DNA of 64,000 bases from Haliotis rufescens. Lineage: Eukaryota. Location of the stretch: the NCBI RefSeq assembly GCF_023055435.1, contig NW_025963791.1, positions 36,952,001 through 37,016,000 on the forward strand, written 5' to 3'. A model generated the notes under the pieces. It was not told the origin of the DNA and did no database searches. It was given only the letters and a program-made list of their open reading frames with translations. The position numbers and the translations under genes are program-made. This document shows positions 4,897-42,820 of the stretch, one piece after another (the stretch's first letter is position 1; every line of letters begins with the position of its first letter).

Positions 4897-5176
4897 GGGG
4901 GCACGGGTGGCCCAGTCGTCTAAGGCACTGCGATTCGCTGTGCAGAGTTGCGTCCCTTGGGCACGCCAGAAACCTATGATTATGGGTTCGAATCCTGGTT
5001 CGCCCTGATTATGTTTCTAGGTTTGTCAGCACCATACCTGTGCTCGTGGGTTTCACCGAAGTGGTAAACGTCTGAGACCTGCATCACTTCGGACTTTCCT
5101 CCCACATTAACTTGATATGCCGCGATATAACTGGAATACTGTTAAAAGCGGCGTTAAACCAAACTCACTCACTCAT
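4897..5176 (+). mobile_element. SINE family A (tRNA-derived head, V-domain-like body, (ACTC)n tail)
   Basis: A box TGGCCCAGTCGTCTAAGG, B box GGTTCGAATCC; TSD TAACTCTGCA at 4887-4896 and 5177-5186; six copies in the window. Confidence 0.93.
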
Positions 5177-5208
5177 TAACTCTGCAACGCATGTTTTTCC
5201 TCTCCTAG

Positions 5209-5375
5209 CAGGGGCGGTTGGGTAGCCTTGTGGTTAAGGCGTTCGCTCGTCACGCCGAAGACCCGGGTTCAATTCCTGACATGGGTACAATGTATGAAGC
5301 CCATTTATGGTGTCCCCCTCCGTGGTATTGCTGGAATATTGCTAAAAGCGGCGTAAAACCATAGTTACTAACTCA
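5209..5375 (+). mobile_element. SINE family B (short tRNA-derived SINE, ~165 bp)
   Basis: A box TAGCCTTGTGG, B box GGTTCAATTCC; TSD CTCTCCTAG; tail shared with family A. Confidence 0.92.
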
Positions 5376-7179
5376 CTCTCCTAGGATGATGGATAATTAT
5401 CACATTTGATATTTTGTTAATACTGACAGAGACTTACTTTGTTTACTATAGCAATTGCTTTGCCTGTCCAGTGTGGTGCTATCAAAAGTTTTCAAGAATC
5501 CTGGTTCATAATTAATACAGCAATTTAACTGACTGACTAGGTACATGTAGAAGTTACCCATGGTTGCAATGAAAAACATGCCAGCAAAATATTCTGAAGT
5601 TGTATTTATAAGTAACCAAGGTTACCGTGGTGTTGATTGTAACCTGCAATTAATGAGTACACTCATCATCTTAAATACAATCATCTTACCATGCTTAAAG
5701 CATGTAGAGAAATGAGTTTTTTTATTTTCGGTTTAATTCCTGTGTATGTTGCAAAAGTTATGCTTTTTTACCAAATAGTAACAATAATACACAGGAGGTA
5801 TTAATCATTATTAAATCTAAGGGACTCTTGAAGTACACTCAGTGTTGGACCAAGAAGGAACGTTAATGATTAATTCCTGACTTTATATGAACCCTAATGA
5901 ATAAGGGAGCCATGCTCGTATTTACTGCTTGGAAACAGTATGATTCAGCTCTTCATGTTCTGGTAGCAGTAAATCACAATGAAAGCTTTGGGGCCACTTC
6001 TGCTAGCCTGTTCCATTTTGATCATTCTCCAAGTTGTAAATTTAACAATATTTTTTGTCAGGCGGTTTATGACTTCAAAGAGTGAACTCTTAGAGTTATT
6101 TCATTGAAGAAAGATGTGCTGATGAAATCCTGTTTTAAGTTATTTTATGTGCATGCATTAACAACATCATTTCATGGAAATTAACTAGAAGTAAAAGAAT
6201 TCACCAAAACATCCATGGATGCAGAATGGGGAACGTTGTTCAAGCAGATGCAATATTTGCTAAGGTTTTTAACTGTTGAAGAGCAGCTTGAACAGAAAGA
6301 CGTGTGTGAAGGGAGACCACTCTTCCACTCTTTGTTGGAAAGATATCAGTCAAGGGTTTAATCAGGTCCTAATGGACAAGGGGAAGTTACAGAATTTATT
6401 CTTGAAGGTCAATAGTTAGCCTTTTCTGGTAATCTGGTAGGGAATCCTTTATAGAACACTTTCTTTGCATATATTGTAAGTCTTGAACAAGTCTAGAACA
6501 GTCTAGACAAATGTGATTTTTTTTTTTAAATTATCAAATTCAATCACTTTTTGAGAGTTTACGTTAAGAGTAAGAGATGTTTATGATCAATCATAGATTT
6601 ATGAGTTGAGTAATATTGGATGAATTCGAAAGAGATTCCGACCAAGGGATAAATGATCATTTCCTTAGTATAATGGTGTAGTGTTGGTAGCTGACATGTA
6701 TTGACAGGAGTAGATACGCCAGTTATTTCATTATTATTTTTGTGCTAAGGTCATTGTTTGTGTTAATTCGAAGATATGTTGAAAGGGAATGTTTTCATTG
6801 CAAGAAATAAATTTATGGTGGACAATGAAACATCTTGAAATATATCTGTTTGCAAGAACACAGACTCACAGAACATTACAATATAGTGAGTTACAAGATA
6901 TGTGAAAACAGTATGTATATTTAGATATGTGGTGATTATGTCAGTGTAGTTATATCTCCAATGTTATAGTTATACCACTGCAGCCACAGAGGGTCAGATG
7001 GTGTGTAGTTATTCGTCTAGGGTAAGAGCAGTACAAGCTGAAAAAAATAAAATCAAGTAAAATCATTCCTTTTGCTCATGTGTGAGGAAAAAAAGTTTAA
7101 AAAATATTTATTCAGAATTTTTTATGAAAAGCAAGTAATTTCTATAGCTAAAAAATAAATTAAAAAAATAGAAAGTTAG

Positions 7180-9361: not shown

Positions 9362-9641
9362 GGGGGCACGGGTGGCCCAGTCGTCTAAGGCGCCACGATT
9401 TGCTGTGCAGAGTTGCGTCCCTTGGGCACGCCAGAAACCTATGATTGTGGGTTCGAATCCCTGTTCGCCACAATTATGTTTCTAGGTTTGTCAGAACCAT
9501 ACCCTTGCTGGTGGGTTTCACCGAAGTGGTAAATGTCTGAGACCTGCATCCCTTTGGGCTTACCTCACACATTAAGCTGACACGCCGCAATATAACTGGA
9601 ATACTGTTAAAAGCGGCGTTAAACCCAGCTCACTCACTCAC
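9362..9641 (+). mobile_element. SINE family A copy
   Basis: Near-identical to 4897-5176; TSD TCTTAC(T/G)TGAG. Confidence 0.93.
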
Positions 9642-10216
9642 TCTTACGTGAGACTAGTGGCTAAATTCACAGTCTGTTGTAGTGTTGCAGCTAGTGCTTG
9701 ATGATGTCACCACTGTGACAGGCTGTGATACACTCACTCACTCTGGAGCAGTAAGTAAAACATATTGATAAGTAAACTGCTCCTTTGTTGCCCATATTAA
9801 TTTTCCAATTCCCTCCTAAACCCCTTACTGATACTACCACATACCAAGGCTGTACCTAGAACTGTACACTCAGGTTTTTACATTGACTTTAAAAAGTGGG
9901 GTCCAGGGACCCCCAATAATTAATTTTAAGGGTCCTTGCAGGCAATGTGACGGTCCTGTAAAGTAATGAAATGGTGTAGTGTACTGTACGTTTTAATAAT
10001 TATTTTAGAGCGCGGAATGAATCAATGATCATGTGGACAGTGGTCATGCTTGAAGGATGAAGTGACAGACACCCATTACTGCTCTTGATGTGCTGTAGGT
10101 ACAAAGAATATTATTGTGTGTCCCTCGGGATGCAGTATGTTCTTTTTCTCTGTCCAATCTCAACATTTGTGCGTCATGTAAAATCCGAGTACACCCTCCA
10201 CTGTTTTTCATACATA

Positions 10217-10559
10217 CCGTATTCGACGTAATAAGCGCCCAGGGCGCTCTCAAAATTAGAAATAGGGGGCTCTTATTAGAATATTATTTTGGTGAAAAAA
10301 ACAGAGTTAAAGGATAAATTTCGTGGTTTATGCTGACAGCCTGAAATGTTTATATACGACAGATATATTTTTCCAGAATTTAATTGCCCATAATTAAGGT
10401 GCACGTAAGACACGAGTGCGTATTATACGCGAATAAATAAGTTTTGTGTACATTGATCAATCGGAAGGGGTGCTAATTGGGATTGTTCACTAGCCAATTT
10501 GTTAGCAAATATCGCCGTGGGCGCTTATTAGAACGGGGCGCTTATTACGTGGAATACGG
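10217..10559. mobile_element. Tc1/mariner-pogo-type MITE
   Basis: TIR CCGTATTCGACGTAATAAGCGCCC / GGGCGCTTATTACGTGGAATACGG; TA on both flanks. Confidence 0.92.
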
Positions 10560-11124
10560 TAGCTTCTAAACGACTTTGTTACATGTCACATTATTTCTTT
10601 AAAAAATAATATTACATCTTTATGTAATTATTGTATTATGTAAATATATTACATCTGTGATGGTTTTATTCAATTATGACAAATGGTTTTGGAGTTATGT
10701 TACAGTTTATCGATTGCTTTTTGCTGCAGTAGCTCTGTAGGTTAATCAAGTTGTAGTCTTTGTATGTAGGGCAACCTGCGCTGTCTGTGTGACCAAGGTG
10801 ATGCTCTTGGGACTACCACACTGCACATCACTGCACATTTTGTATACTGTTATCTTAAATTCAGATGCTGACCTAATTAAGTATCTAATGACAAGGTAGT
10901 ATGCATGGTCGACTTTTTTTTACGATTATTACAATGTCTTGTCTGATGAAGCAAGAGATGGATAATGGTGTTAGAATCTCCATAGAAACGCAAACACAAA
11001 TGGAATGAAATAGTTGATCATCCATACCGTCTTATCATTGGTTACATAGGTTCAAGTGAATAATGCCACTGAAACATGTGTGACCCTAATGTTTTTCCGT
11101 GTCAAAGTTAATCATTACGCTTCT

Positions 11125-11728: not shown

Positions 11729-12690
11729 AATAAACCATTTGGTTATGTTAACAACTTTAATTTGTAAGTTATCACATCAGCTTCTTATGAGAATATTGAG
11801 TTTTCTCAATTTACAGTTAAGTTTGCACAATATTAATTTATAGAAAATAAAAGTACAATACCCAGCATCAGTCATTACCACATTAATCATTGATCTCAGA
11901 ATAAGTTGTGCTGTATGTAGCAGTCTGGTTAATACCAAAGGGCACACAATGGCGAATATGTCACAATTTGTATAATGTACAGATTTCTGAAGTGTTTTGG
12001 TTTTATATAAAAGAAGTAAAAAAATATGCTTAAAGCAAAATGAACTTTGAACTTATTAAATAACACCCAAAATGAGACACAGAATCAACATGAAAAAGAT
12101 GTGTTTTTATGATTTAATTATATCCTGTTGATAGTGTTGAAACAGAAGTGAAAATGTTTTCATAACAAGAGATTAGTATGTCTTATTCGGTGAAAACATT
12201 TTGCCATTTTCTGAACAATGACCTGATTATGAGAGATGTGCACTGGAGATGCGTCATTAAGACATGTACAGAAATTGGGCTGACTAGTAGTTGCTTCCAA
12301 ACTGCTAAATGATGTACCTTGATGTAGTCATACATTACACCTGGTTGAATTATTTATGCGGCTATTAAAGCCTATGAAATACAATGAAAGTCTTTTCCTT
12401 CATTTATTTTTAAGTCTTATTTTCTCTTGAGGTCAAATGGCCAAATGGAGTATGATCGTGACTAGTCCATTTCACCACTTGGGTAACAAGCATTGGATGG
12501 TTGGAGAATTCAGTCATGGCTTTTGTAATGTTGGGGTAGCTGACTCATGGGCTGAGACCATGAGAATTGGGTGTAAGGAGTGTAGGATTGTGTGTAAACT
12601 AAGCCGAACAGTGTGGAAGGTTGCTCATGCTGTCAACCACTGGTTATTTACAAACCTGTACTGTTGTTGACAATGATCATTCTCTGACCA

Positions 12691-12950
12691 ACCCGTGAAG
12701 ATCCGGGGCAGAATAGATTTTCAGCAACCCATGCTTGCCTTAAAAGGCGACTATGCTTGTCGTAAGAGGCGACCAACGGGATTGGCTGGTCAGGCTTGCT
12801 GACTTGGTTGATGCATGTCATCAATCCCAATTGTGTGGATCGATGCTCATGATGTCAATCATTGGATTGTCTGGTCCAGACTCGATTATTTACAGACCAG
12901 GGTCATATAGCTGTAATATTGCTGAGTGCGGTGTTAAACAACAAACAAAT
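12691..12950 (+). mobile_element. SINE-like family C (no tRNA head; Meta-domain-like motif TGCTTGTCGTAAGAGGCGAC; (CAAA)n tail)
   Basis: TSD ATTCTCTGACCA at 12679-12690 and 12951-12962; about ten related copies or fragments in the window. Confidence 0.9.
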
Positions 12951-14379
12951 ATTCTCTGACCAAAATACCAAGAGCCCATCCATACCAAACTTAAGTATCT
13001 GAATTTTCATCATCAAATTATTTTCCAGTGATATCCAATACGTGATTCCAAGTCAACCCAATTTCCAGTGATATACGAGATCCCACCTACAAATACAAAC
13101 GTCACAACAAAGGTTATTGAAATATGCTGTCCAACTACCCGATCCGATAACAGAAATATGAAAATGTTAATTATCATGGTCGTAGTATATCATATCAGCC
13201 TTCACATAGTGTCAGTAGCGATCACTTCCTGGTTCTTGCCTCAGGCAGGCCCTGTTAAGCTCTGCCCGATCTTGTCCACCATACTGTTATGTTTGTAACC
13301 AAGGTAATATCGTTTATCATGTCATATGGGCAGTTTCCCCGATCTTCCCGCTGTTTGATGACAAATATTTAGGTAGTTAATGTTTTGGCTATTGCTATTG
13401 TTACTGTAGGCTATACAATTCACTGTTTGCTTTGTGACGTTGGTGTTGCTGGCCCACTGGAGGGAGGGGTTGGAGGGAGGGAGGGGTCATCACCTGGACA
13501 AGTGCCGCAACAGTTCATTACCTGGCGCTACCATGTGTGCAGTGTAATTACATTCCTCCATGGGCACTCATCCAGAACGCTTGTATCCCAGGAAGCTTTC
13601 ATCATCTATTATTATCACCTTATTATGATCCTCCATTCTCCTGTGCCCTTTCGTGAGCAGCTACAATTGAATATCATATCCAAGTCGGAAACCCGATGTT
13701 AACATTGTATATAATACACATTTCATAGAGAGTCAACAATAGGGGATTTTGCCAAACTGGGGCAGAAATACTTGTCTGTTTCGGGGAGGTACAATAGTAA
13801 TAATAGCATAACACTGTGGCCACTCTTTGGCTGGGGTCAACAACTGTATGGTGTGGCTGGTGCTATATGATGTCTTACACCTCGCTACTCACAGCGTAAT
13901 ATGGGTTGCGTAACTATTGTCATTACCTTGGAGGATGGAGATGAAGCTATGTCCATATTGTGACCTATGGATGGCCATGTCATGACTACAAAGGAAAGGA
14001 TTAAGAAGTGTTGGGAGGACATTGTGGGCATATCTACTGTTGATTGATTTCTTGTGAAGAGCTTGTTGAACATAGAGTAGCTACGGGTTATAATTGAGTT
14101 GATTGTCAATAACAAATTGATCATGTTGATGGTTGGCAATTATTGAAGTTCTGGTCAGTATTCAGATGGATTGTTGCCAGTATTTAACTTTTGGTTAATC
14201 CCTCAGCATCAAGAATGTGTGTGGGTAAAGTTTCAAATTTCTTGTTGTTTCAGTAATAACTGTAAAATTGTTACAAGGTGCTTTTCATATGCAGTATTTG
14301 AAATAATAAATTTAAACAATTGGGATGAAAAATTGAACGTTTATACATGATAAAAAGCTTAATTGGCTACTGATAACCA

Positions 14380-14508: not shown

Positions 14509-16597
14509 ACTGATAACCATATATTGAAAATATCCTAAACTGCTGAAGCGGCGAAAATGGGATGTATTTGAGGCAAAAACAACCAAACTAAAAAGTTTTC
14601 TTCAAAAACATAAACCCATTTTATTTCTTTCCCTTAGACCCTGACATCAAACATAGCGTCATGAAATGAGATCTTTTGACAATTCAACATTTTCAAGTTG
14701 AATGCAAATTTAATTTGTTGTTTTTTGTAACTAAAATAATAATTGAGTATCAAGTTATTTTCATTACTCTCGCAATCACAATTTGAAGTGGTCTTGTGAG
14801 GAGATTATTTTCATCCATCTATATTGATTGTTGTTGCTAAGCAAACATGTAAGAGGTGATATTACAGTCGAGAGTTTCTATCTGAGGGACTTAAATAATA
14901 TTCATCATGGCATAAATTAACCTGTATGTGTGTCATCCAGCTGCCGATCTACCCACATGAAGTTGAGGGATGCTTATTCAATGACGAGGGACTCTGAGTT
15001 ATATGTGTAGGAGACAGTTGTGTTGTGAACTTTAAAGTGGTTTATTGTTAAATTTGTCATGTCAACTTTCACAGCACGAAAATCCCATGTCAAAGACCTT
15101 TATAACCAGGCTAGTGTTTATTATAGCCTGCTGGTAACCACAAGGCTTACTGCTGTGTCTACAAGACTTAATTGAGACATTTGTAGATTTATGGCGATCA
15201 AACAGAAGAAAGCCAGGTGAGATGGGGTGGTGAAAACACTATTATTAGCAATTTGTTTTTCATGAAATGTAGTATTTTCTTTGGCAAGGTAATAATTAAT
15301 GTGTCGTGATTTTGTCACTCGTGTTATCCATCAGCTTGGGATGATAATGACAATAATTCCCTGTCCGCCCCACTGCTTGACACCCCTCAACCGAAGTAGA
15401 ATCTTCCAGTCTAAATTTACCGTAGGACATACCTTCTGGTGGCAATCAGGCTGGTGAAAGCAAGCTCTGCTATAGGTTGGACTTACTCTCAGTGTTAGAA
15501 TGGGATGAGAGAACAAGCTGAGAGGATGTTAAGATGGATAATGCCAAGAATAGACAGTGTATTGGATGATCATTATGGAGCGTGTTGTTTGATATGATGT
15601 GCTTCATTGACTTGTGATGGGCACAATAGCAGCATTGCTTGGGATGAGCACTCCGGAAAGCTTTTGGATCTGTTTCACTAGCCACTACTCATTTCACAAT
15701 TGTTAACAGTGTTGTGTGTTCATCCAGGTTCTTGCAAACAGGTGCTTTCCAGGTTGTCTGCTTCTAGTGCTTTTATTATGAATCCTACCTTAATGCACCA
15801 GAGTGTTTTTGGCTTGAATGTTTTCAAATCAGTTTGCATTATCATGTCAGCCAAAGCCATTTACTTTGTAGTAATTGGAATTGATCAAGGCACTATTTAG
15901 AGTCCAAACGTGTATAATTTGCCAAATATACAAGATTTTTCCATTGTCAAAAATTAAGTGCCTTGGTGAACTGTGATATGATCTAGAGACCATTGAAATG
16001 CTTGTCAAAATTAGTGGATTTATGTTCTAGATATCATTAATGGGAAGAAAGACTTGTGTTATTTGAGCTGTTTGGGTGAAGTTAAGGAGGTTTTCAGGTG
16101 CATTAAGTGATAGGTGTTGATAGGGGCAACTGAGGTCGACAGTTATTCAAATAGCCCTTGGACAGGGCAGTGTTAACAGTGCCTTAGGTCTTGTTCCTGT
16201 GCTTCCAAGTTACAGAGATTTTTTTGACTGCCAAAAGTACTTTAGCCCGCCATTAGGAAGCTTTACAGTGGACTTGCCAGAGACTGACAGCAGTTGTGTT
16301 GTCTTGTGAACCATATTTGCTTTAAATGAGCCACATTGATCCAATCAAAGGATATTAATGTGTTACCAGTTTGTATCCAACAGTAATTCCAAATAGGCTG
16401 AAAATTTCTACATAACAACAGATTTGAAACAAAATCTGGCATGAGAAACATTCAGGATATATGACAAGAGGATCCTTCCATCCAGTGGTGTGTCTTCAAT
16501 ATACACGGCTTCATTATGGAATGTGTGATGCAGCTCTAGCTGTGACATCAAACCTCACGCCCCCTGATGCAGCCTAAAGTGTCCGCGTTTTGCCCTG

Positions 16598-16878: not shown

Positions 16879-19800
16879 GTAAGATTTGGTCAATTTAAAT
16901 GTTATATAGTCAGGGAACAGTAAACACTCTCCTTACTATATAGAACAGTAAATCTTCCCCCAATTATATTCAATGAAATTTTGTTCACAGAATTATTGCT
17001 AAAGTGACAGTAACGATGTACATCTGGAAACCTTCAAACAGTTTGTAGTTTCAACAAACTCGCCCTTCTACATCTACCGGTATTTATATGAAAAGTAGAA
17101 AAAGGTCTTTCCGTATGATATGATATGAAATTCATCCACTTTTTATTGCTATCTATATTAATTCGAAGGAAAATGGCAATAAGATGGGCTTCACATTTAG
17201 TATATTGTTGTGATGTAGGGTAAACACATGTAAACCATGCTGTCATTTGTCATAATCTAAGCAAATGGTGGGGAAGAAGAAACCAAATGCTTCAGTGTTC
17301 CATCATAAGTTAACGTTAGACACAGACAGTAATAATCTAGTCTAGCCCTCTGTCCGTCAGTGTATGAAATATCTGAGTGTGTGAGTGACGATGCAAACCA
17401 GCATCTGTCACATGGAATAGTACTTACCAACAGCACATTATTACAGCAAATAACACTGACATGATGGCAGTCATATCAACTTACAAGATGAAATTGGGAC
17501 AAAATTATATTGTTTTTCAGATTTCACAAATTAAGTCAATCATTATGTAAATTATTTTGGAAATATATCTATGAAGACAGTAGGATATTTAAAAGTTACT
17601 ATGTCTCTAAAATATCACAGTCAAAGGGAATGGTATATTGAATGCTGCGTGCCTTAGCAGTGTAAACTCCACCAACACCAACACCCACTGTCGAATCTGA
17701 TGCATAGGCGTGATAACTTACCTATTTTCAAGATCATGTGTGCCATTTAATAATATAGAATAGCCAGATGGGCACTAGCACATGTGTTTGCATATTTCAT
17801 CCTAGAATTTAGAAAATTGCAAAAAGAAAAAAACAAGACATGCTAAACATGCTAAAACACATATCTGAATGATAATCAGAAAATATCTTAGGATTTATTG
17901 CTCCTGATTGGAACATATTCTGGACTGTCTAGATTATTTGCTTGGTATTTTTGCTGTATTTGTTCAATAAGAATTTGTCACCTGTCCTGGAGACAGGTGA
18001 GCAGTTCTAAATAAATTAATAAATAATGTATGAATATAGCACTGCTAAGAATGTGTATGTATCTTTGTTCAAAGGGCATTAAGTTGTTAAAACACCATTG
18101 TTGAAGTCTTTGATGTCTTTTGTGACTCCAATTACATAGCAATGTTTTAGTTTCACAAAAGGCACTTATTACAACTTTTAGGCCAGTCTAAAATGGTTGG
18201 GGGGGGGGGGGGAGGCACGGTTGGCCCAGTCGTCTTCAGCGCCGCAATTCGCTGTGCAGAGTTGCATCCCTTGGGCACGCCAGAAACCTACAATTGTGGG
18301 TTCAAATCCTGGTTCGCCCCGATTATGTTTCTCGGTTTTGTCAGCACCATACGCATGCTCATGGGTTTCACCGAAGTGGTAAACTTCTAAGACCTGAATC
18401 ACTTCAGGCTTTCCTCCCACATTAAGCTGACACGGCGCGATATAACTGGAATACTGTTAAAAGCAGTGTTAAACACAACTCACTCACTGTTTTTAATGTC
18501 CATCAAACATTGAAAGAAGTATTAAGAAATTTTAGATGTCTGTACAAATGAAATTGGATTAATCATGTTCCTATGTTTATGATACCAAAATACCAATATT
18601 ATGTAAAATTATCAGCGTTTTGATGGAACTGAGACTTTCACCGTGACATTTATTTTACATTAAGATATGTCCTGATGTTGTCTTCGGATGCAGAGCAAGT
18701 CGAAATGGTTACCAAACGAGAATTCCATCTCAGATGAAATTGATTCCCACACGGAATAAAATAGTTTGAATGCTCACTGCACCACATGGAAAATGGAATT
18801 CTATTTAAGTCCCGTTGTATTGATAAACCACTAGCAATATGTTTTCAGTGTTTCACAAGAGCGTGTAAAGAATCTCATTTTGATTATTGAACCAGCTGAG
18901 AAGTCACTGCATGCCGCAACCTGCCCTCTGTTTAGTGTCGCTGGAAGGATATGAAGTTACGCATTAGTGTTGACCTGATGATGTAAATATGGAAGATAAG
19001 CTGTGTCAACATGGTGCCCACATTGAGAGACTTGTATGTCCAAGGTTGAATTATTTCCCCAACATACACAAGGTTGATTCATCTATCAAACATATGCAAC
19101 ACTGAATTATTCAGTTGACACATCAGACTTCTAATTGTCCACCCAGGTTTCTACCCAGGAAAACCAGTATTGAATCATCCAACAAACATACCAAACATTG
19201 AATCATCCTCCCAACTTACTGGTACCCAACACTGGATCATCCACCAAACATAATGGTACCCAACATTGAATCATCCACCCAACATTGAATCATCCACCAA
19301 ACTTACTGGCACCCAACATTGAATCATCCACCCAACATTGAATCATCCACCAAACTTACTGGCACCCAACATTGAATCATCCACCCAACATTGAATCATC
19401 CACCAAACAATGAATCATCCACCCAACTTTGCACCCAACATTGAATCATCCACCCAACATTGAATCATCCACCCAACTAACTGGCACCCAACAATGAATC
19501 ACCCACCCAACATATCTGCACCCAACATTGAATCATCCACCCAACATTGAATCATCCACCAAACAATGAATCATCCACCCAACTTTGCACCCAACATTGA
19601 ATTATCCACCCAACATATCGGCACCCAACATTGAATCATCCACCCAACATATCTCCACCCAACATTGAATCATCCACCCAACATTGAATCATCCACCAAA
19701 CAATGAATCATCCACCCAACTTTGCACCCAACATTGAATTATCCACCCAACATATCGGCACCCTACATTGAATCATCCACCCAACATTGAATCATCCACC

Positions 19801-22800
19801 CAACATATCCGCACCCTACATGGAATAATCCACCCAACATTGAATCATCCACCCAACATTGAATCATCCACCAAATACACCGGTACTCAACACTGAATCA
19901 TCCAGTTGGGAAGTCTGCAAACAGTCATAAATACACATATTCTTTATAGGTTTGCAAACGTGCTTGATCTCCTGACTTTATCATATGTTGCTTCACTTCA
20001 TTGTGTGTTTATGAATTTTGTGGGGGACTTTTTGCCTGCCGTGTTGGTTTGCAGCATCCTGGTTTATGTGTGTTTAGTCCAGGTTGCCATGGGAAAGCTG
20101 GCCCAACAATCACTGGTAACACTTTTGTTGGACTGGATTCAGTCGTGATACAAGTACACATTTTGTGAGCCATGCCTCCTGACTGAGATCCGTGGATTAA
20201 TTACAACAAGGTCATTAGTTAATCTTATTTAATGGAACAGGTAAAATGTGGAGATGATGGAATCAAGCATGGCGTGTTAATAACAGGTGTGGCGCCCATG
20301 TTGAGCTGCTGGCCTTGAGGCTCGATATGTGATCACTTTTTCACTTCAGTAATGTAATAAACGTGTGCTTAGAAAGTATAATGGCAGGCCGAGTTTTCCC
20401 ACCAGATTAGGTTCAATCATGTATTTCAGTTCAATAGAAAGGAAGGATAGAGTGACACTATGCATTAATATGACCTGGGTTAGGAGAGAAACAAGTTCGG
20501 AAAAGAGATTTACCATGTAATGAGTAGATGTAAGTTTGCACACACACACCTGTTTGTATGTATAGAAGATTTTGTACATGTTAAGTGTGATATCCCATTT
20601 CAAGGAAGAAATATCAGCTCGGTTACTTGCTAACTTGCATTTAAACTTGTATAAGAAACTATGATATGTATTAGGAATAGATATCCAAGCCAGGTTTCAT
20701 GTTTTTTCTATGCAGATCTTTAATGTAGTGAAACATATTTCTTGATTAAGTACACAGTGATTTCATTTATTAATGGACTTGTGTTATGTTTCCTCCCTGT
20801 GGGGAGTTGGTGGTAGAATTGGTATCAAATATCCCAAGCTTGACTTGAGAGCTGACTAGTTGAAGATCAGGTGGTCATAATGTGATATCTTCCTGATTGA
20901 GGATCAGGTGGTCACAGTGTGTTATCTGGCTGATTGGGGATCAGGTGGTCACAGTGTGTTACCTGGTTGATTGAGGATCAGTTGATCACAATGTGTTACC
21001 TGGCTGATGGAGGATCAGGTGGTCACAGTGTGGTACCTGGCTGATTGAGGATCAGGTGGTCACAGTGTGTTACCTGGCTAATTGGGGATCAGGTGGTCAC
21101 AGTGTGTTACCGGCCTGATTGAGGATCAGATGGTCAGTGTGTTACCTGGCTGATTGAGGATCAGGTGGTCACAGTGTGTTACCTGGCTGATTGAGGATCA
21201 GGTGGTCACAGTGTGTTACCTGGCTGATTGAGGATCAGATGGTCACCATGCATTACCTGGTTGATTGAGGATCAGGTGGTCACAGTGTGTTACCTGGCTG
21301 ATTGAGGATCAGGTGGTCACAGTGTGTTACCTGGCAGATTGAGGATCAGGTGGTCACAGTGTGTTACCTGGTTGATGGAGGATCAGATGGTCACAGTGTG
21401 TTACCAGGCTGATTGAGGATCAGGTGGTCACAATGTGTTACCTGGCTGATTGGGGATCAGGTGGTCAGTGTGTTACCAGGCTGATTGAGGATCAGATGAA
21501 CACAGTGTGTTACCAGGCTGATTGAGGATCAGGTGGTCACAATGTGTTACCTTGCTGATTGAGGATCAGATGGTCACCATGCATTACCTGGCTGATTGAG
21601 GATCAGGTGGTCACAATGTGTTACCTTGCTTATTAGGGATCAGGTGGTCACAATGTGATACCTGGCTTATTGAGGATCAGGTGGTCACAATGTGATACCT
21701 TGCTGATTGAGGATCAGGTAGTCACAGTGTGTTACCTGGCTGATTGACGATCAGGTTGACACAGTGTGTCTGTTGGCTTTTGTTTATTATGAAAAGCACA
21801 ATTCACTTTGATTTGCTGTAAATAATTTTGCTTTAATTAACATACCTTTCTAAGTGATATTAAACCAAACTCACTCAGTGCAAGGTTTAAAATGCAAATT
21901 TATGACAAACATATCTGCTTGAATACTTATACTTTTTGACAATAATATCCTTAATTTCAAGGCATCTCGACTCCAACATATAAACATAAAAAATGATTAG
22001 TACAGGAACTGGAGATAGGTAGGAGTGTGAATTTGAGCGTGATCAAGGTGAGCACATTGCTGTTACAGAATCTGTCATATTTCTGAGGTTGTATGGCTGG
22101 TTATTGATGAACAAAATGCCAGGATCTCAGTTAAACTGTTGTAGAAGATGCCCGTGAGTATCAATAATAGAGGATGTGGATGTAGAAGATCTCCACGTCA
22201 ATCTCACCCAGGATATCATGTTACCTGTTGCTACTGTTAATGTAATGCAATATTTAACACGCACCTTGTGCACTGGGCCTAAGGAAAGGATGAATATATT
22301 AAAAAAGGGTTTTGGCTATCTCTGGACTTGATAATGAGGTGTCACTATATTTGATGATATAGCTGGTATTGCTGATGTTATGTTCAATTTTACCCATTAC
22401 TGGAATGCCTATTTTTCTTAGTGAAACCATGATTTTATCATTTGTGTAAAACTTATAAGGTGTGATGTGACAAAATTCATGAGAAATTATTCATTATGTT
22501 TAGGCTTTCATTCAGTATTACTTAGAAGATGAAATGTTGTCAGGATTGTGAATATCTCTGAATGTTGCAGTGAGATATCTGTATAAGACGTACATATGCA
22601 GGTTCTTGTGAAAATTGGTGCACAGGTGGCCCAGTTGTCTAAGGTGCCGCAATTCGATGTGCAGAGTTGCGTCTCTTGGGCATCCAGGTTTACCCTGATT
22701 ATGCTTCTTGGTTTGTCAGCACTGTACCAGTGCTCATGGGTTTCACCAGAGTGGTAAACGTCCAAGACCTGCATTACTTCAGGCTTTCTTTACACATCAA

Positions 22801-25800
22801 GCAGACATGCTGTGATGTAACTGGAATAGTTTTCAAAGTATGGTAGCGTTAAACCTAACTCGCTGACTCACTCCTGTGAAAACAAAGAAATTGAACTTTT
22901 TTTTTGGTCTCACATTTTCATCGGGCAATTTCAGACAAAGTTATGAAATATGGAGATTAAGCACTTCAAGCTGGTGAACCTGGATAAAGTCTTCTACATT
23001 GATTTCCTAATAGATTGTCATGATTAGAGGACAGGGTTACAGATTTATACGTAGTTCAGGTCACTCGATAGATTGCCATTTTCCACAATGTCTTAAAACA
23101 AATAATAAGGTCCATTTTGAAATTGATGAAGTCATAGACATGTCCAAAAATCCATTTGTCGCAGAAAAGTCTCGAGAGATATAGTGCCATGATGAATTTT
23201 ATTCCAGAAAGGTGGCTTCTTGTTAATGTTATTTTATGTTGGTGTCCCATTACCCTGATGGAAGCAGGAAGACTGCAAATTACCCCAATTATCTTTATGC
23301 TACAGATTGGTGGCGGACAATTGAACCATCATTGCTTGATGAGCGTAGTCTGTTATTCCACACTCCCCCCCCAGTAATGACATGATCCGTAGATTATGCA
23401 ACTACGTTGCTGCTGGGTTAATGTGGCCAATGGAGCTGCCTGCAGGATGCACCAAACGTCCTCTGCTGTTTCTATTACCTGCAGTGATTACAATTAGGTC
23501 TAATGGAGGAATAATGATGCTGGCAAGGCATGTTGCTGAAATTACTTTCCATTTGATTTATGTAATTAATTATAGTGATTTTGTTGCCTGAGGTGTTGGG
23601 TACTAAACTGCAGTAATGTGAAATCTGTGTTCTAGATGTTGTCCTTGGCCGGGTCTTTACAAATCCATAAAAGATTTTGTTTTCTCAGAATATTTCTAAG
23701 TCTGTGTATCATGATACACTTTTCTAGCAAAATTTTGATGGCAATATTTTGTGGTAAAATGGATTGTTTTTGATTGAAGTACAGTATTTGCTTTCCGTGT
23801 TGCTCATATTGGTTGCTGGTTTTAGAGGAATCAGCAGTTGAAGCTCATTCGTCCTGTTTCCCTGGTAGCTTGTAATCCAATACTCTCATCCTGAAATATT
23901 CATGAAGATTTCTTGCTGTTCCAGAGATCATGAGCAGTCTGCCTACAACGTATTTGAAATTATCATTCATTATATATTTATTAATTTCAGAAAAGTGATT
24001 ATTTTTGTTTTTTTCTCTGAGGTCTATGCAGATATATGGAATGACATTGACAGTTTAGAATAAATCATCAAAATTCCTAAATGCTAGAATTCTTAAAATG
24101 TCTTTTTGGTGCAATTTTGAACAAATATTGATTGTTCTCTTGATATCATCAAGAAATTTGTATTCACCCATTTAAGATTGTTGTAAGAGGTGACTAACGG
24201 GATCGGGTGGTCAGACTTGCTGACTTGGTTGATGCATGTCATTGTATCCCAATTGCATGGATCGATGCTCATGATATCAATCACTGGATTGTCTGGTCCA
24301 GACTTGATTATTTTCAGACTGTAGTCATATAGCTTGAATATTGCTTAGTGTGGCATTACACAACAAACAAACAAATAAGATTCACTTAGATTAATGTTTT
24401 TATAATGATTTCACGTCAGCATAAAATTGCAAGTATCATTTAATGGAACATACCAATTTTGAATAACGTTCGGCCATGGACATGTTATGAGGTAAGAAGG
24501 AAAGTATGTCTGCAGAATGGCCATGGAGGCATAGAGATGCCCTTATTATAATGGCTCTCTTTGAGGTGTTGAGCTTGTCCAAGTAGGTCTTTGTTTGGCA
24601 GCCATGTTTGTTTTGGCAAGGGGAGGTCACTGGCCCACAAGTGAGCCAATCACTGACCAGTGGACAGTGGAAGAACTACTCCACATGTTGACATTCATGG
24701 CATGATAAATTGATAATGGCAGCCTGGCTGATAAATATAGCCAAGGACGTCATGGAAACTGTGTCTACAAACTTGGTTTATGCGTATCAAATTTTAATGC
24801 AATATCTGGAGAAGGCTGTCGTTGTAACCTGATATACTGAATAGACTAATAACTATATGTGAAACGTATAAAGTGTCAATGTCAGAATAAGCAGTCTTGT
24901 TTATCCGCCGAAACAGATTTCATAAGGCGTACAAAGCAAAATAAATGAAAATTATTTGAATAGATCACTGAAATTCAGTGATGACACCAGGTGTTCACGA
25001 AAAGGGTAAGCATGTCCTGCTCTACCGGTAGCACCCTCCACTCTCACAGTTTGCATAAAAAAGTATGTTTGTTGCCTGACACCGCACAGCAGTACTTCAG
25101 CCATTCTCAGTGACAAGCTTTTTTATTTTCTGTGGTTTTCTAGCTGTTCTTTTGGCTTTTGGGTTGGTTATTATTTTATTTATACAATGTATAGTTGACA
25201 TAGTTATAAGAGATATTACCAAGTATGATATTGTTTTTCATATTATTGAAGGGAACAATATGCACAGAGAGCTACACAAACACATGAGAATTAACATGAA
25301 TTGTGCAGGATGGGTCACAATGTTTTCATGTGTGTATTACTAGTCTTGTGGTATGTAGTACAATGCGAATCTTCGAGTATCCATTTTGTAACACACTAAT
25401 GTTGTCAGCACTCTGAAAGTCTGTCTTTCCCTGGGACTTACTGCTTAATACAACATGCAGGCCTTCAGACATTCGTATTCCCTAATAATCCAAGTTATTA
25501 TATAGTGTTATCAGGGATTTGATCACTATTTGTTAGTGCTTCATAAACACATGTTTATGATATACCGGTAGTCAAAATGGTACAATAGACTCTGCATTTA
25601 GGAACTATTGCTAATTTCAGTGTCTCAATGTCCGCAAGGCACTAGCGTTACAACATCTAATGAAATAGCTTCCAGATCATGGAGCATTGTCTGAATGCTG
25701 AATGAGGGCAACGTGTGGTCTGGGATAGAGAAAACTATACTACTGTCTCGTTAATATTAACTACTAATTTGAATGTGTGTATTTGGAAAAAAAGCTGGCC

Positions 25801-28800
25801 ACAGCATTAAATCAGGTAACATGACTTTGGCTCTATTCTGATTATATATTTGTGACGACTTGTTCAAGAGGTGATTAGATATTCTTGATGACTAGTTCAA
25901 GAGGTGATAAAAAAATATGAAGTTGAACTATGTATGACCTTTGGTATTGAATTTTTGGAGGTGGATGGGAATCCTGTAATTTATATGTTAATTTTGATTA
26001 AGTAAGGAATGGAAACGGAAAATTTGTCTGTGAGATTGCCAGAAGGACATGTATTCTCTTATGCCTATTGATTTACTTCTCTCCTCTGTGAAAATCATTT
26101 TTAGTGTCACTCACTCATTCTGCTGAAATACAGTATTACTATCTTCTTAGTATTTTACAAAAAGATTATACATCCCACATCTTCCAGAAATCAAGCACCA
26201 CACCTTGAATACAAGAACTACCTTGGATTCTTGTCAACTGCCATTACAACATGCAATTAGGTGTTCCACTGTCAGCGTTCTAGACAGGGACATGTGACCA
26301 TAGATTTGTCCCAGCAGTTGATGGCCTTGTAACCACAACAAACAACAGTAGTTGTCATCAGCCATCATGTTATGTTCTATAACTGGCCCATCACCTGTTT
26401 ATGGGAGCAGCTATTGTAGGTACTTGGACCTAAATCTCGAGAAAGTCATTTCTAGTTTGTGCATGTCTGTGAAGCCTGAGATTCATTCCGGTTGGTGTCA
26501 TTTAATAAATCCCACCCTTTTGATAGACAGTTTAATGGTTGTGATTCAATTGTCAATGTATAGATTGAAGTGTGTTATTCACCGATTGTGTTGTTTTTTT
26601 TAAAGTAGAAAGGAACCAATTGAAAGTTGTTGTTTTTTATGTTAGTATTTTTTTATTTTTCGGGTTGACAGTGAAAATATGTTTATGTTTCAGCGGTAGA
26701 AACTAACAGTTTTACTCTACTAGTCCTTATAATGATAACATATAGCAAAACCCTAAAAAAATGGCCAATTTCTACTCGTCCTTATGATACCTTAACTATT
26801 GGGCAGTTTGGCCAGGACTACAGGACTAGTGCCAATTTCTAATGCTGTGTTTCAGTGCTTAAGATTTATCTAAATGATTGATATTCAATTTAGTGTTCAT
26901 TTACATGTTGATATGACATGTTTCTCAAGTGTATGCACAGTTTGTAGTAATAACAATACTCCGGTAGCCTTGGCAGCGCTGACTGTCACAACTTCTATAC
27001 TTTTAAAGAGACTTTCTATTTTCAAAGCGCTAGGATCGCTTTGTGAAACGGCTCCCTGAACTTCAGAATCATATCAATGACACCCTTTATTCAATACTTG
27101 GTAATGTGGGCACCAAGTTTTAGACTACAACAAGTATTCAGTTTTACACCAGAATAATAAACCATGCTGAATGAATTCCTACACGTCTTGATATTAAAGT
27201 AGGCATTCCTACTCAAGGAAAAGTAAGGCTCCACTTTGAACAAATGATATGCCTCTTTAGGGTTGTGTTCATCTGTGATAGAGCTCAGACTTGTTATATC
27301 AGATTCTACCATTGAATGTATTGAGAAGCTTGGCCCATTAGCGACAGGAGTATATTTGAATGGGGTGATTTCATTCCCAGGAGATATTCACTGATCCATG
27401 CTCTGTAAATTAACTCTGTTATGTGTTGGCTTGACTAAGTGGGCTTGTTTGTGGACACTGTGCCAAATAGGCCCCTAAATAGATGTTGATAGGTGCTATT
27501 ACTAGTGTTAGTCCGTTACACAATGACATGTGTTTATTCAGCCCGCGGTGACAGTTCCATAGCAAGTGTTTGGCCACTTTTACGTCACACAATGAAGGGT
27601 TCGTATACGTTACATACGCACCTCAACACCTGTGTTTGGGGAGAAAAAGTGTGGCATTAATTCCAGTCACTGACATCAATTAAGCAGTTTATGAAGTGTT
27701 TAGGGTTTATAGATTGCACACTATGTCTCTTTTATTGGTGTAATATTTCTTTGATCGCATGATTTTCTTTGATTTTTTTCAGATTATCTGTTAACTGCTG
27801 TTGCAGATGTATTCATTATGTAGTGTATGATGTTTGCATCAACAGATGTCATTAGCACTGGTTCAATATTTGGTGTAGAAATTCATATAACTTTGATATT
27901 GCCAGCCTTTATGAAATGAATGGTATATGGCCTAACTGATGAATTATCTGGTGGTAAGTTGGCTGTGTGGTGTTTGCCTTATCAGCTAAGGGAGGGTTGT
28001 ATTAAGGACTGTGGCTCCTGTCAACTTCATTAGTCAAGTGGACACCAACACCCAACAATTGCGGTCACTCTCCTCAGGAGCATAGCATTGTTGTCTGTTC
28101 ACGGACAAGCTTTTAATAAGTCAGTCCTTTCTAGGTAAGATTATTGTTATTAATATTCTATTTAATTTTTATCCCCCTGGCATATAATGCGGGGGGATAT
28201 AGCGATCAGCCAGTCCGTCCGTCCGTCCGTCTGTCTGTCTGTCCGTCCGTCCGTAATCATTTCCTTCCCCGGAGCAGAACTCGAAAATAATTCAGTGTAT
28301 TTGATTGAAACTTGGCATATCTATCAGTCACATACTGAAGTTGTGCCTTTTGCTATTTAGGAATTTTAGAAATTTTTATTTTTTACGTTTCCATGGTAAC
28401 AAGTTGGACTTAGGTTCTATAAGGGTGGTGTTCGTTTCCGGAGCGTAACTCGAAAAACGTTAAATACTTTCTTACAAAACTTTGCATGTCTACCAGGCAC
28501 ATACTGAACTGGTGCCTTTTGCTATTTAGGAAAAGAATTTTTTATTTATTTTTTACGTTTCCATTGCAACCAGTTGGACTTAGGTTCTATAGGGTAGAGT
28601 TCGTTTCCAGAGCATAACTCAAAACCCATTCAAAACTTTTTCTTACAAAACTTTGCATGTCTATCAGACTCATGCTGAACTGGTGCCTTTTGCTATTTAG
28701 GAATTTTAGAAATTTTTATTTTTTACGTTTCCATGGTAACAAGTTTGACTTAGGTTCTATAAGGGTGATGTTCGTTTCCGGAGCGTAACTCAAAAAACGT

Positions 28801-31800
28801 TAAATACTTTCTTACAAAACTTTGCATGTCTACCAGGCACATACTAAACTGGTGCCTTTTGCTATTTAGGAAAAGAATTTTTTATTTATTTTTTACGTTT
28901 CCATTGCAACCAGTTGGACTTAGGTTCTATAGGGTAGAGTTCGTTTCCGGAGCATAACTCAAAACCCATTCAAAACTTTTTCTTACAAAACTTTGCATGT
29001 CTATCAGACTCATGCTGAACTGGTGCCTTTTGCTATTTAGGAATTTTAGAAATTTTTATTTTTTACGTTTCCATGGTAACAAGTTTGACTTAGGTTCTAT
29101 AAGGGTGATGTTCGTTTCCGGAGCGTTACTCAAAAACCGTTACATACTTTCTTACAAAACTTTGCATGTCTACCAGGCACATACTGAACTGGTGCCTTTT
29201 GCTGTTTAGGAATATCATAAATTTTTATTTTTTATGTTTCCATGGTAACAAGTTGGACTTAGGTTCTATAAGGGTGATGTTCGTTTCCGGAGCGTTACTC
29301 AAAAACCGTTACATACTTTCTTACAAAACTTTGCATGTCTACCAGGCACATACTGAACTGGTGCCTTTTGCTGTTTAGGAATATCATAAATTTTTATTTT
29401 TTATGTTTCCATGGTAACAAGTTGGACTTAGGTTCTAAAAGGGTGGTGTTCGTTTCCGGAGCGTAACTCAAAAACTGTTACTGTATTCGACGTAATAAGC
29501 GCCCCGCTCTAATAAGCGCCCACGGCGATATTTGCTAATATATTGGCAAGTGAACAATCCCAATTAGCACCCCTTCCGATTGATCAATGTACACAAGACT
29601 TGTTTACTTATGTATAATAAGCACTCGTGTGTTATATGCACACTTAATTATGGGCAATTAAATTCTGGAAAAATATATCTGTCATATATAAACAGTTCAG
29701 GCCTTCAGCATAAACCATGAAATTTATCTTTCAACTCTGTTTTTTCCACCAAAATAATATTCTAATCAGAGCCCCCTATTTCTAATTTTGAGAGCGCCCT
29801 GGGCGCTTATTACGTCGAATACGGTAAATACTTTCTTACAAAACTTTGCATGTCTACCAGGCACATACTGAACTGGTGCCTTTTGCTATTTAGGAATTTT
29901 TATTTATTTATTTTTTACGTTTCCATGGCAACAAGTTGGATTTAAGTTTTCATATAGGGTGGGTTCACTAATGGAGTATAACAAATAAACTGTTAAATAT
30001 TTCCTTGCCAAACATTGCATATCCATATATAAAGTACATACTGAACAGGTGCCATTTGATATTAAGGAGTTTTAGAAATGTTTATTTTAGAATTTCCTTT
30101 GCAGCTATTTTGACATTGGCTGAGAGAAATGTTGGGTCAGTTACCTGGTTTGGGACCATAACGTGTTAAAATGGGTGGGGGATATAGATGACTTCGTTGA
30201 CTATACGCTTGTTTCTTGTAATTTGTCATTTGTTTGCATTAAAAAAACACCACAGAAACCCACGTTTTACTTTCCATTTCATATGGATGCGACCATGCTG
30301 GATCTTTTGTTGGTAAACAATGTATGCTTCTTAAAGAACATTCAACTCTTGACTCATTACATACAGAATTGCACATTTACTTGTGGTTACTTTACAGACA
30401 GCTGCCGGGGGGATATGTCATCTTTCTGATGACTCTTGTTAAAATTTTATTGATAATTTCTTTCTTTTCCCCCGGCATGTAATGTGGGATATAGTCATAA
30501 TCGGGTCCGTCTGTACGTCCGTCCGTATTTCGTCTCTGGAGCATAACTTAAAAAAAGAAAGATTATTCATCCAAACTTGGTACATGTATTAACCAGGGGC
30601 TGAAGGGGTGCCTTTTGTTATTGTGGGGGGATTTGTCATCTTCTGATGACTCTTGGTTTTTTTGTAATTTACTTTATAATAGAATACTTCACAAAGTGTC
30701 TATTAATTTATATTTGTAAATTTACATACAAAGGATGTGCATACATCATACTTATATAATTGTTGATACTGAAAGATAATTATGAAATGGAAAAAGCATT
30801 AATAATGTTTGTGACGAAACTGAATGCAGTAGTGGTGGTGTTGAACTTGTGACCCAAGGTTTAAAGAAGATATTACCATCATTAAGAGATTATTACTGCG
30901 GCTCAGTCTTTGGTCATTGGTGGCTTTCTTTTGGGTCAGCTGGGAGATTTCATCTCTGACAATTACTGTGGTGTTGATACAGCTGATCCTGGTCAGTGCC
31001 ATACCCTGCTGGCCAGGTAACGGCCAGGTAACTGTCAGGTAACACACTGATAAGGAGCACTGATTGATCTTTTATCATCACCAGTGATTGATTGAGCAGT
31101 GCCTCTCTCCCACTGGTGCCTGACTAAACACTACTTTGTTATGAAAGCTGGTGTATCAGATATCTTGTCAACTGTTTATCAAGATATGGCCTGACACCTT
31201 CAGCCTTTGTTTTCCTTCCATAGAAGGTATATCTTGGTCCGCTAAATACCTGGGTCTGCCATTCATTGCGGCTTATCTGTCCTTGGTTGTGCTGGTCACT
31301 GCCCAGTTGCCATCGTAGTAACCAGGGGGGGCTGCCAGGCAAACAGTATTACCTTACTGGTGGGCCAGACCAGGGCAAGGGCGGCATGTGACCGCCAGGT
31401 GATAAGTTCCAGCAGTGTTTATTGGCCTGTACTGTAGATAGTCGAACAATGTACTGGGGTTGGGTGTTTCAGAACATAGTCATTCATGGTTGTCTGCTTT
31501 TGAAAAAGTTCAACAAATATTGTTATGTTTTAATAAATTTGTTATATTTTCATACTTGCCCTGCCATAGTTGTAGTAGTTATTAGGGCTGGGACAGGTAA
31601 CATGGATACTCAGGTCGGGTTGGTACTTAATAGGTTCCCCAGGTAGGGTCGGGGAATAGGGGGTTGGGTACCCGGGTTTGTAAATTTGGACTCGTCCCAG
31701 CCCTCGTAGTTGTTTATCTTAAAATGTTAACAAGTTGTTTTTTGTTAAATTGCAAAGCCTATGATAATTTAAGACAACAATATATCCATGAAATGTTTTA

Positions 31801-40800: not shown

Positions 40801-42820
40801 TCAAAAACATTGCGGGAAATAGTGAATAACTTTTTAATCTATCGATAAAAAATGATAAATTGAAATAGAATTCGTATTTCAGACATTGTAAGATGTGATA
40901 GATTTAATAAATGAATGGTATGACAGGTAGGTCCATAAAAATATATATTATTTTGACGTGACTAAGGCTTGGCCGGTGCCTGAGGACTCGGTGCCTACGG
41001 TGTTGAAAGAGTTTAAACACATTTAAAACGTATCTGTGATAAAAGTTTATGTACAAAAACAAAGACGTACGTATATACGTCTTTGAAAAAAACGTATCGT
41101 GAAAAATCGAGATACAGCATCTCACAAATCGCACACCGTATCGTATGGAGTGAATCGCGATGCATCGGTGTCCCGGAATATCGTTTCAGCCCTAATTTTT
41201 AGCCTCTCCTTGTCTACATTGTCATACTGAATATTGAATTCACTTTAATCACAGCACTAACGTTCTCTTTGGTTTAAAAGTAAAAGTAGGCGATAAAAAT
41301 GAATTTTGTAATATTTATTTCTCTGGTGAATACTGATGGTTTATGAATCTTCCTTCCAGCCTCAACACAACCCCAGCAAGCAGTGGGCGGTCCTCCCCCA
41401 CGATCGAATCACACAGCACCCTGTCAGCATCACATGGAGGGTGGACGACTGGCAACACCACCGAGAGGAGCAGCCTTGACTCCTCCTACTCTTGGGATGT
41501 GAGTACCCAGTCCTTGTCATACCTGGTCCTTGTCATACCTGGTCCTTGTCATACCCAGTCCTTGTCATACCCAGTCCTTGTCATACTGGGTCCCCATCAT
41601 ATCCTGTCACTGTCATACCCGGTTCTTGTCATACCCGGTCCTTGTCATACCCGGTCCTTGTCATACCAAGTCTTTGTCATACTGGGTCTCCATCATATCC
41701 TGTCACTGTCATACCTGGTCCTGGTCCTAAAACCATACTCACTCACTCATATCCTGTCTTTGTCATACCTGGTCTCCGTCATACCCGTTCCCCATCATAG
41801 CTGATGGAACGAAATGAATTCCAATCCTATTGTGCCATTGATGTTCATCATTCAAGTTATGTCTTCTTCAGGAGTTTGACCGCCAGGCAGCAAAGACAGT
41901 GAACCAGCTGTTTGATGAGATTGAGCGGTTCTTGTTCGAAGGCAGCAGTGAGAACCCGTCCAGTATATTCAAGGAATGCAAGGATTGGAGCACACACTTT
42001 CCTCATCTCAGGTAGGTGCAGGGTTGTAGCTTTAACTGCCATAATCATTAAGTCCTTCAGACTTTTCTTGTGAGTGAGTGAGTGAGTGAGTTGGGTTTAA
42101 CACCGCTTTTAACAATATTCCAGTTATATTGCGGCATGTCAGCTTAATGTGGGAGGAAAGCCCGAAGTGATGCAGTGATGCAGACATTGACCACTTCGGT
42201 GAAACCCACGAGCACGGGTATGGTGCTGACAAACCTAGAAACATAATCGGGGCGAACCTGGATTTGAACCCACAATCATAGGTTTCTGGTGTGCCCAAGA
42301 TATGCAACTCTGCACAGCGAATCACGGCGCCTTAGACGACTGGGCCACCCGTGCCCCCTCCTTTTCTTGTGAATTAGACTATTTGGAACCTTGCATGAAA
42401 CTATGATTATTTGTGTACTTTGCTATTTATTTTAAGTATTATTAATTTAAAAAGGTGGATAGGACAGATGTTACGGTTACCAAATTAGGTGATGGATTGA
42501 ATGGACAGCATGGTAGATAAACACCTGTGTATTGATCTGTACTTCATCTGTGTATTGATGGCCTCTGTGGTCTAATGGATAGAGCAAATACCGGGAGAGT
42601 GGAAGGTTGGTGGTTCGATCCTCATTCGCGGCTTACCAAAAGCCATTGAATGATGTTACTTGTTGTTACCCTGTCTGGCGCTCTACATTAAGGGGATAAA
42701 ACAAGGACTGTCAGGGTTGGAGTCAGTATACTGGTTCTGAGTGAGATATTCATCTTAAACTGCTGCATGGTATCTCAGTGGGCTAGCACTATAAAACCAG
42801 CACTAGTCTGGACTAGTACA

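Follow-up and report, generated by a model that had tools for sequence, protein, structure and literature searches.

The first 70 nt of an abundant SINE of Haliotis rufescens are predicted to form a covarying pseudoknotted RNA fold, which also stands at the 5′ ends of LINEs of this genome and in the 3′ untranslated regions of RNA viruses. We see about an even chance that this head is an xrRNA-like fold that stalls 5′–3′ exoribonucleases (Xrn1/Xrn2) and so sets the fixed start of the element without cutting itself. The window, by which we mean the whole 64 000-nt stretch analysed (NW_025963791.1, positions 36 952 001–37 016 000), contains all four target-site duplication (TSD)-bounded copies listed in the original prediction (12691, 14380, 47877 and 49360), with starts no more than 2 nt from consensus position 1, but also five that it had missed, which are truncated or older. 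These and related features of the window are as follows.

12691–12950, + strand: SINE copy 1, full-length, LP-SINE-like, ∼255 nt, with an (AAAC)n end; TSD 12679–12691 and 12951–12963
12731–12752, + strand: 22-nt duplication of the S3-3′/hairpin unit, found in the younger subfamily only
12899–12946, + strand: ∼45-nt tail in copy 1, common to the tRNA-headed SINEs of the window and the 3′ ends of LINEs L441–L443 and L445
14380–14508, + strand: SINE copy 2, head and 20 nt of body, then microsatellite; TSD 14369–14379 and 14509–14519
47877–48143, + strand: SINE copy 3, full-length, with two extra nt between TSD and start; TSD 47864–47874 and 48144–48154
49360–49624, + strand: SINE copy 4, full-length, with a 3-nt deletion in S2; TSD 49353–49359 and 49625–49631
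24178–24376, + strand: 5′-truncated SINE copy, by sequence comparison
43501–43656, + strand: old SINE copy, 5′-truncated, by sequence comparison
46216–46400, − strand: old single-unit SINE copy with an altered S2 stem; fold-model score 27.7 bits
47504–47670, + strand: SINE copy, 5′-truncated and with an internal deletion, by sequence comparison
61919–62169, + strand: 5′-truncated SINE copy (61985–62169) and an inverted piece (61919–61972)
4897–5183, 9362–9648, 18211–18498, 22617–22870, 37731–38017 and 42072–42359: tRNA-headed SINEs
5211–5377, 54114–54196 and 55042–55124: further tRNA-headed SINEs

The TSDs of copies 1–4 measure 13, 11, 11 (one mismatch) and 7 nt, and the SINE consensus is ∼250–257 nt long. 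As had been predicted, tRNA boxes are absent: no pol III box A/B motif occurs in the first 175 nt, and ARAGORN reports no tRNA in the window. The common LINE-type tail is present in the full-length copies but not in the 14380 copy, which jumps from position 114 to the microsatellite; the internal duplication is real but confined to the younger subfamily, and single-unit heads exist. The two tRNA-headed SINE families of the window have only the last ∼45 nt in common with the LP-like SINE. The window also holds several minisatellites (units of 11, 16, 19, 23, 25, 31 and 37 nt) and a family of 169/171-nt tandem repeats, one dispersed copy of which is inverted (28285–30088 and 10215–10561). A weak fold-model match (14.7 bits, 20793–20867) lies at the start of the 37-nt minisatellite (20741–21887), the unit of which resembles the SINE body; this array may come from an old copy.

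The predicted layout of the head consists of an H-type pseudoknot (4–5 bp, one U, 7 bp and an A-rich loop with AGAAUA), stem S3, a hairpin and an optional second knot. Its elements in copy 1 are listed here.

12692–12722, + strand: predicted 5′ H-type pseudoknot, from covariation and a fold-model match of 61.9 bits; S1 pairs 12692–12695 with 12704–12707, L1 is U12696 and S2 pairs 12697–12703 with 12716–12722
12710–12715, + strand: loop 3, conserved AGAAUA
12723–12735, + strand: predicted stem S3, from covariation; 12723–12726 pairs with 12732–12735 or with the duplicate 12754–12757
12759–12773, + strand: hairpin S4 (GTCG-TAAGAGG-CGAC), invariant in sequence across homologues, partly because the search pattern required it
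12778–12780, + strand: GGG predicted to pair with the CCC loop of S3 (S5, optional second pseudoknot)

Homologues were collected from viral contigs and metagenomes (at least 117 metagenome stretches) with exact patterns taken from the hairpin of the window; seven of the ten hairpin-pattern matches in viral contigs show the fold upstream. Among the 148 matches listed, 102 have an AGAAT anchor and fall into 43 clusters, 24 of which were used (at least six of seven S2 pairs), the 19 left out being chance matches, decayed copies and register slips. Because S2 was placed by best pairing its score follows by construction, and the other helices are therefore the real tests. Across the 24 clusters, with the S1 offset chosen among three and with permutations that ignore relatedness, S1 (5′ CCCG paired to the GGG that follows S2) scores 86 against 68 ± 3 (0 of 5000 permutations), the outer pair of S3 scores 19 against 7 (0 of 5000) and S5 (S3 loop with the downstream GGG) scores 87 against 71 (1 of 1000). 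A MAFFT alignment of 35 rows (six viral, 29 metagenomic and none from the Haliotis genome), hand-picked in a way that favours structure, is paired at 85% in S1, 89% in S2, 91% in S3 and 51–77% in S5; overall 85% of cells are paired, both sides change in 16 of the 23 pairs and base pairs are swapped in S1 (G-C/C-G 15/10) and in S3 (C-G/G-C/A-U 12/11/7). A fold model made from this alignment scores 44–62 bits on the four window copies, and changes in S2 are compensatory in older SINE subfamilies of this genome. Single-sequence folding of five copies, a method that cannot show pseudoknots, gave structures that disagree with one another (z between −2.65 and +1.66), and Rfam holds nothing relevant to the window (E ≤ 1) or to 12 homologue loci (E ≤ 5).

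Covariation and start positions support the original prediction of a conserved pseudoknotted RNA structure tied to a fixed 5′ end. Of the four helices in its by-eye fold two are right, the stem of the GAAGA hairpin and the hairpin of GTCG, but the partners of its closing stem and its pseudoknot are swapped: a CCCGT/ACGGG closing stem is equalled by 434 of 1000 permutations and is 53% paired in the alignment, and pairing of the loop GGG with ACCC is equalled by 294 of 1000 and is 46–70% paired.

The uniform start that had been predicted is sharp genome-wide, but not universal. We sampled 80 evenly spaced 10-kb stretches (800 kb) from large contigs of the 1.33-Gb genome and found 157 SINE elements, which extrapolates to ∼260 000 copies. 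Among the 110 tail-bearing copies of this sample 59 start at positions 1–3, ten at positions 4–12 and 41 are scattered over positions 13–181, and an independent sequencing run has contig breaks at the same three positions (242, 107 and 60 contigs). For 27 of 88 SINE heads a TSD of at least 9 nt was found, which in 22 cases ends within one position (−1 to +1) of the first base. No tRNA-headed parent, for which a search had been proposed, lies upstream of the 41 truncated copies in the 800-kb sample, where only pieces of the SINE itself are common, or was recognized by eye among 30 tail-selected copies. From the start histogram and the lack of an upstream parent among truncated copies, we conclude that the family has its own head and did not arise from a tRNA SINE by loss of the tRNA part. 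Sharp starts are usual among short retroposons and by themselves reveal no mechanism. The first base is G in 83%, and the two flanking positions that precede it are also enriched in G (34% and 33%; n = 83 heads); among the extra 5′ bases of SINE copies, two of 13 are G. In three small-RNA runs labelled as a related species, 8, 111 and 13 reads map to the SINE, without piling up at its start, and 0–1 reads map to the LINE head; since libraries of this kind (50 nt, size-selected) could not reveal the terminus of a 250-nt RNA, the counts bear on the 5′ end neither way. A piRNA-like antisense small RNA, ∼30 nt long and starting at one point in two runs (63 and nine reads), maps to L026:1673–1703 (minus strand). 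At another locus (L022; G000:C223:34616736–34617083) five tandem 50-nt copies of the pseudoknot half only stand before a full SINE, all enclosed by one apparent TSD.

The family is likely to be the published LP-SINE, matched on size, anatomy and LINE link by description and not letter by letter. LP-SINEs of Haliotis (Hdi_LP and Hmi_LP) are given as 255 bp long, with the first 70 bp matching LINE 5′ ends (Matetovici 2016; PMC4758252). The SINE described here likewise lacks a small-RNA head, begins with ∼70 nt homologous to LINE 5′ ends (45–64 bits), measures ∼255 bp, is bounded by TSDs, ends in a tandem repeat (microsatellite), has LINE homology limited to the head and has its tail in common with tRNA SINEs. 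According to the available text of that article, the LP 5′ domain is common to Nimb-17_LMi, I-3_DR and RTE-9_CPB, has replaced tRNA heads in oyster SINEs, is a part separate from MESC in scallop SINEs, is likened to the trypanosome 77-nt promoter/ribozyme element and is proposed as an internal pol II promoter, a role its authors call untested; unlike the present account, that text offers the promoter proposal and no RNA fold, viral occurrence, partner LINE or HDV-plus-head LINEs. The label ‘headless’ was thus likely wrong, as the head fits the description of the LP domain from a LINE 5′ UTR. A link to the Meta domain of MetaSINEs, also suggested at the outset, is not supported. The Meta domain is described as central, directly after a tRNA head (PMC4824008), whereas the LP-type head is terminal and LINE-derived, no tRNA head precedes it, no such parent lies upstream of the 41 truncated copies and it fits the separate description of LP. 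The likeness to MetaSINEs and MESC is that of a molluscan SINE module with Nimb-type tails on record (PMC11481361, available text).

A LINE 5′ UTR as the source of the head, another search proposed with the original prediction, was found. The fold stands at the 5′ end in four of 20 LINE stretches of this genome (L441–L443 and L445; model scores of 45–64 bits), ∼610–630 nt before the first ATG of ORF1. These LINEs have a two-ORF layout with APE, RT and RNase H, and because their 3′ ends resemble the SINE tail they are likely, as judged from sequence, to be the partners of the SINE. The label ‘Nimb-like’ (I-group) is one that we infer from this layout together with the available text of PMC4758252 and PMC11481361. 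The other 16 stretches, including two other RNase H-bearing LINEs that were scanned, have no head at the 5′ end; 20 endonuclease loci with 1.5-kb flanks show no head, and longer stretches had it.

LINEs of the L441–L443 type carry a 57-nt HDV-like module directly before the fold (L442:755–811, G000:C101). The module matches Rfam RF02682 at 29 bits (E of 9e-4) and RF00094 at 25 bits, both below the gathering score, and has P1 with a first G-U pair, L3, the GG, the J4/2 C, P2 and a start at G1. It may be a compact HDV-like ribozyme with almost no P4, and is also seen in L441, L443 and L455–L484. The HDV-bearing L441 and L442 sit within the endonuclease region of other LINE copies. An HDV descriptor found nothing before the metagenome heads. 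Although the query began at the fold, 29 of the best 30 L442-type copies start at the first G of the module, one starts inside it and none starts at the fold, which is intact behind the module (55–64 bits). As all 30 extend into the upstream module, the reverse transcriptase reads through the fold; as none starts at the fold, transcripts of these LINEs are neither cleaved nor initiated at the edge of the intact fold. Since it is kept there without setting the end, the fold would have a further or back-up role (protection or translation). L445-type LINEs (L445 and L485–L514) have no HDV-like module, start at the fold and have a SINE-like tail. Exactly two conserved nt, of unrelated letters, precede S1 in both the L445-type LINEs (30 copies) and the SINE (83 heads). 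The L445-type starts are pyrimidines and are preceded by G in five of 23; with no excess of G here or among the extra bases of the SINE, there is no sign of a copied cap.

Outside this genome the fold was found in six distinct RNA-virus contigs (L228, L229/L237, L232, L236, L238 and L558), identified by RdRP and/or capsid Pfam matches (coat only for L228 and capsid only for L229). L558 stems from a later scan (three matches among 67 new loci) and is outside the model rows. In all six the fold follows the last long ORF on the coding strand, 7–199 nt past the stop codon and 6–111 nt from the contig end, and is in tandem in L228 and L558; several of the carriers are tombus-like viruses. Loose viral patterns, used as a negative control, gave only chance matches beyond the known carriers. 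The full fold is also present between genes in a 212-kb DNA-virus contig (L231:7980–8053), as it is in two DNA contigs that are unclassified and have no PHROG matches (L544:2990–3063 and L559:352–425). Metagenomic copies precede endonuclease-bearing LINE ORFs in four of the eight ORFs scanned, with two copies in tandem in L130. One copy (L174:1376–1451, minus strand) precedes a Baculo_F (env-like) ORF by ∼360 nt, a position that is internal to what may be an LTR element, and two metagenome contigs (L196 and L222) hold satellite-like, head-to-tail arrays of the fold. Six of 37 pattern matches in prokaryote genomes have the fold (L597, L602, L605, L609, L617 and L619); because their flanks resemble eukaryotic retroelements or contig edges, they are likely eukaryotic contamination, and L619 continues like the L442 LINE 5′ UTR with a zinc-knuckle ORF.

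Since the fold covaries and occurs in RNA viruses, where a DNA promoter cannot act, its function should be at the RNA level. We favour an exonuclease block because viral xrRNAs are described as sitting in 3′ UTRs, often in tandem (PMC8374639, available text), as the fold does here, and because the SINE and the L445-type LINEs begin at an identical distance from the fold. Under this model read-through host transcripts would be cut or decapped upstream of the head, 5′–3′ trimming by Xrn1/Xrn2 would halt 2 nt short of the knot and leave the RNA beyond it protected, and an I-group (Nimb-like) LINE with the same head and tail would reverse-transcribe the protected RNA from the common tail. The model also accommodates the L442-type LINEs, since ribozyme products are reported to carry a shielded 5′-OH (PMC11331408, available text). 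Known xrRNAs (flavivirus classes 1 and 2, plant-virus class 3 and coremin; PMC8374639, PMC7527734, PMC12397905 and PMC10520033, available text) are likewise pseudoknotted elements of 50–80 nt in viral 3′ UTRs, often tandem and with a defined 5′ end, and the head has at least one pseudoknot (S1/S2 covariation, predicted fold) at the 5′ end of the RNA that would be protected. It differs from them as a 5′ H-type pseudoknot with S3 and S4 that also occurs in host retroelements and is known here as a predicted fold. It fits none of the described classes: classes 1–3 and coremin gave no Rfam match, and neither a three-way junction nor a coremin motif was seen by eye. Known xrRNAs are described as forming a 15–16-nt ring around the 5′ end (PMC8374639). 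Also against the block, simple, frameshift-type pseudoknots are reported not to stall Xrn1 (PMC10321173, available text), the first G of the SINE (83%) could be a copied cap G, and the carriers comprise only six RNA viruses alongside the DNA contigs L231, L544 and L559. The 2-nt overhang would also be shorter than those known at flaviviral halt sites.

The original prediction named self-cleavage, a non-tRNA promoter and a reverse-transcription stop as possible causes of the uniform start, and not the exonuclease block to which the viral 3′ UTR positions point; none of the three is supported as the main mechanism, given the absence of starts at the fold in the 30 L442-type copies. A new class of self-cleaving ribozyme, cutting at its own 5′ edge, would suit the compact double-pseudoknot size, the sharp start and the sequence-conserved core, and 5′ ribozymes are used by many LINE clades, HDV-like ones being known at the 5′ ends of R2, RTE, Ingi and LOA (PMC5786205, available text); a parallel with the trypanosome 77-nt element (Pr77) is drawn in PMC4758252. 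Like these, the head is a structured 5′ module common to otherwise unrelated LINEs and their non-autonomous partners, which would fix the 5′ end without a promoter. However, cleavage at this edge would have left starts at the intact fold of the HDV-bearing LINEs and would cut the 3′ end off linear viral RNAs, and the statement that the head fits no known ribozyme core holds up: core motifs and Rfam models of the hammerhead, twister, pistol, hatchet and hairpin ribozymes are not matched, and the HDV core (L3 YCC pairing with the GG after P1; J4/2 C) is absent, with no Rfam match and one loose HDV regex match that does not map to P3/L3. The L3/P1.1/catalytic-C core of LINE HDV-like ribozymes is thus lacking in the head, and the HDV-like module is separate, in front of it, in one family. 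We consider a new ribozyme distinctly improbable. An internal pol II promoter, as proposed for LP-SINEs, would make the start a transcription start and would explain the terminal position in LINEs and SINEs, the exchange for tRNA heads in oysters (PMC4758252) and a first G that could be cap-derived. It is improbable in our view, as the letters of the stems vary freely while pairing is kept, the fold occurs in RNA viruses, starts at the fold are lacking in the HDV-bearing family (0 of 30) and the L445-type LINEs start with pyrimidines and no added G. Stable pseudoknots can stall polymerases. A reverse transcriptase that stops at the fold is nevertheless a very remote prospect, as the enzyme has already passed through the fold when it reaches the start, on the far (5′) side, and as it continues into the upstream module in all 30 related LINE copies.

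A different function, the main rival, deserves more weight, though we regard it as unlikely: the fold could be a cap-independent translation or ribosome-recruiting element, 3′-CITE-like in viruses and IRES-like in uncapped LINE RNAs, which the SINE keeps to meet nascent LINE proteins, its 5′ end being set otherwise, e.g. by an initiator at the first bases. Tombus-like viruses are among the carriers, and that group uses 3′ cap-independent translation enhancers (PMC10520033, available text); the fold is kept behind the HDV-like ribozyme candidate, where the RNA would be uncapped and the start already set; the letters of the hairpin and of AGAAUA are conserved, as would suit contact with protein or ribosome; and the L174 copy precedes an env-like ORF. 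Such a role leaves the start exactly 2 nt before S1 in two families unexplained, and the distance of ∼610–630 nt to ORF1 in the LINEs here speaks against it. Translation and the exonuclease block are compatible and can both be true together.

The SINE itself was probably already known; the fold, its viral occurrence and the LINEs with both HDV-like module and fold are probably the new part, as they were not found in Rfam or in the text of openly available papers, where the literal hairpin sequence gave no match. The exact 5′ end of promoter-less, non-tRNA retroposons has been a puzzle, and since 2016 the LP head has carried the promoter proposal as its sole label. According to a 2021 review (PMC8374639, available text), xrRNAs in cellular RNAs were still to be found. 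We put at slightly below even the chance that the head is the first xrRNA to be found in cellular RNAs and represents a new structural class, with a single nuclease-blocking fold of 70 nt common to animal LINEs and SINEs and to several unrelated RNA-virus groups, and sometimes placed behind an HDV-like ribozyme. If this is true, exonuclease trimming would be a third route to a defined retroelement 5′ end, beside promoters and ribozymes. The pair of LINE types with and without the HDV-like module before the fold offers a natural experiment. Whatever the mechanism, the head represents a structured RNA family without a match in Rfam that by extrapolation is present in ∼260 000 copies in this genome and is common to retroelements and RNA viruses.
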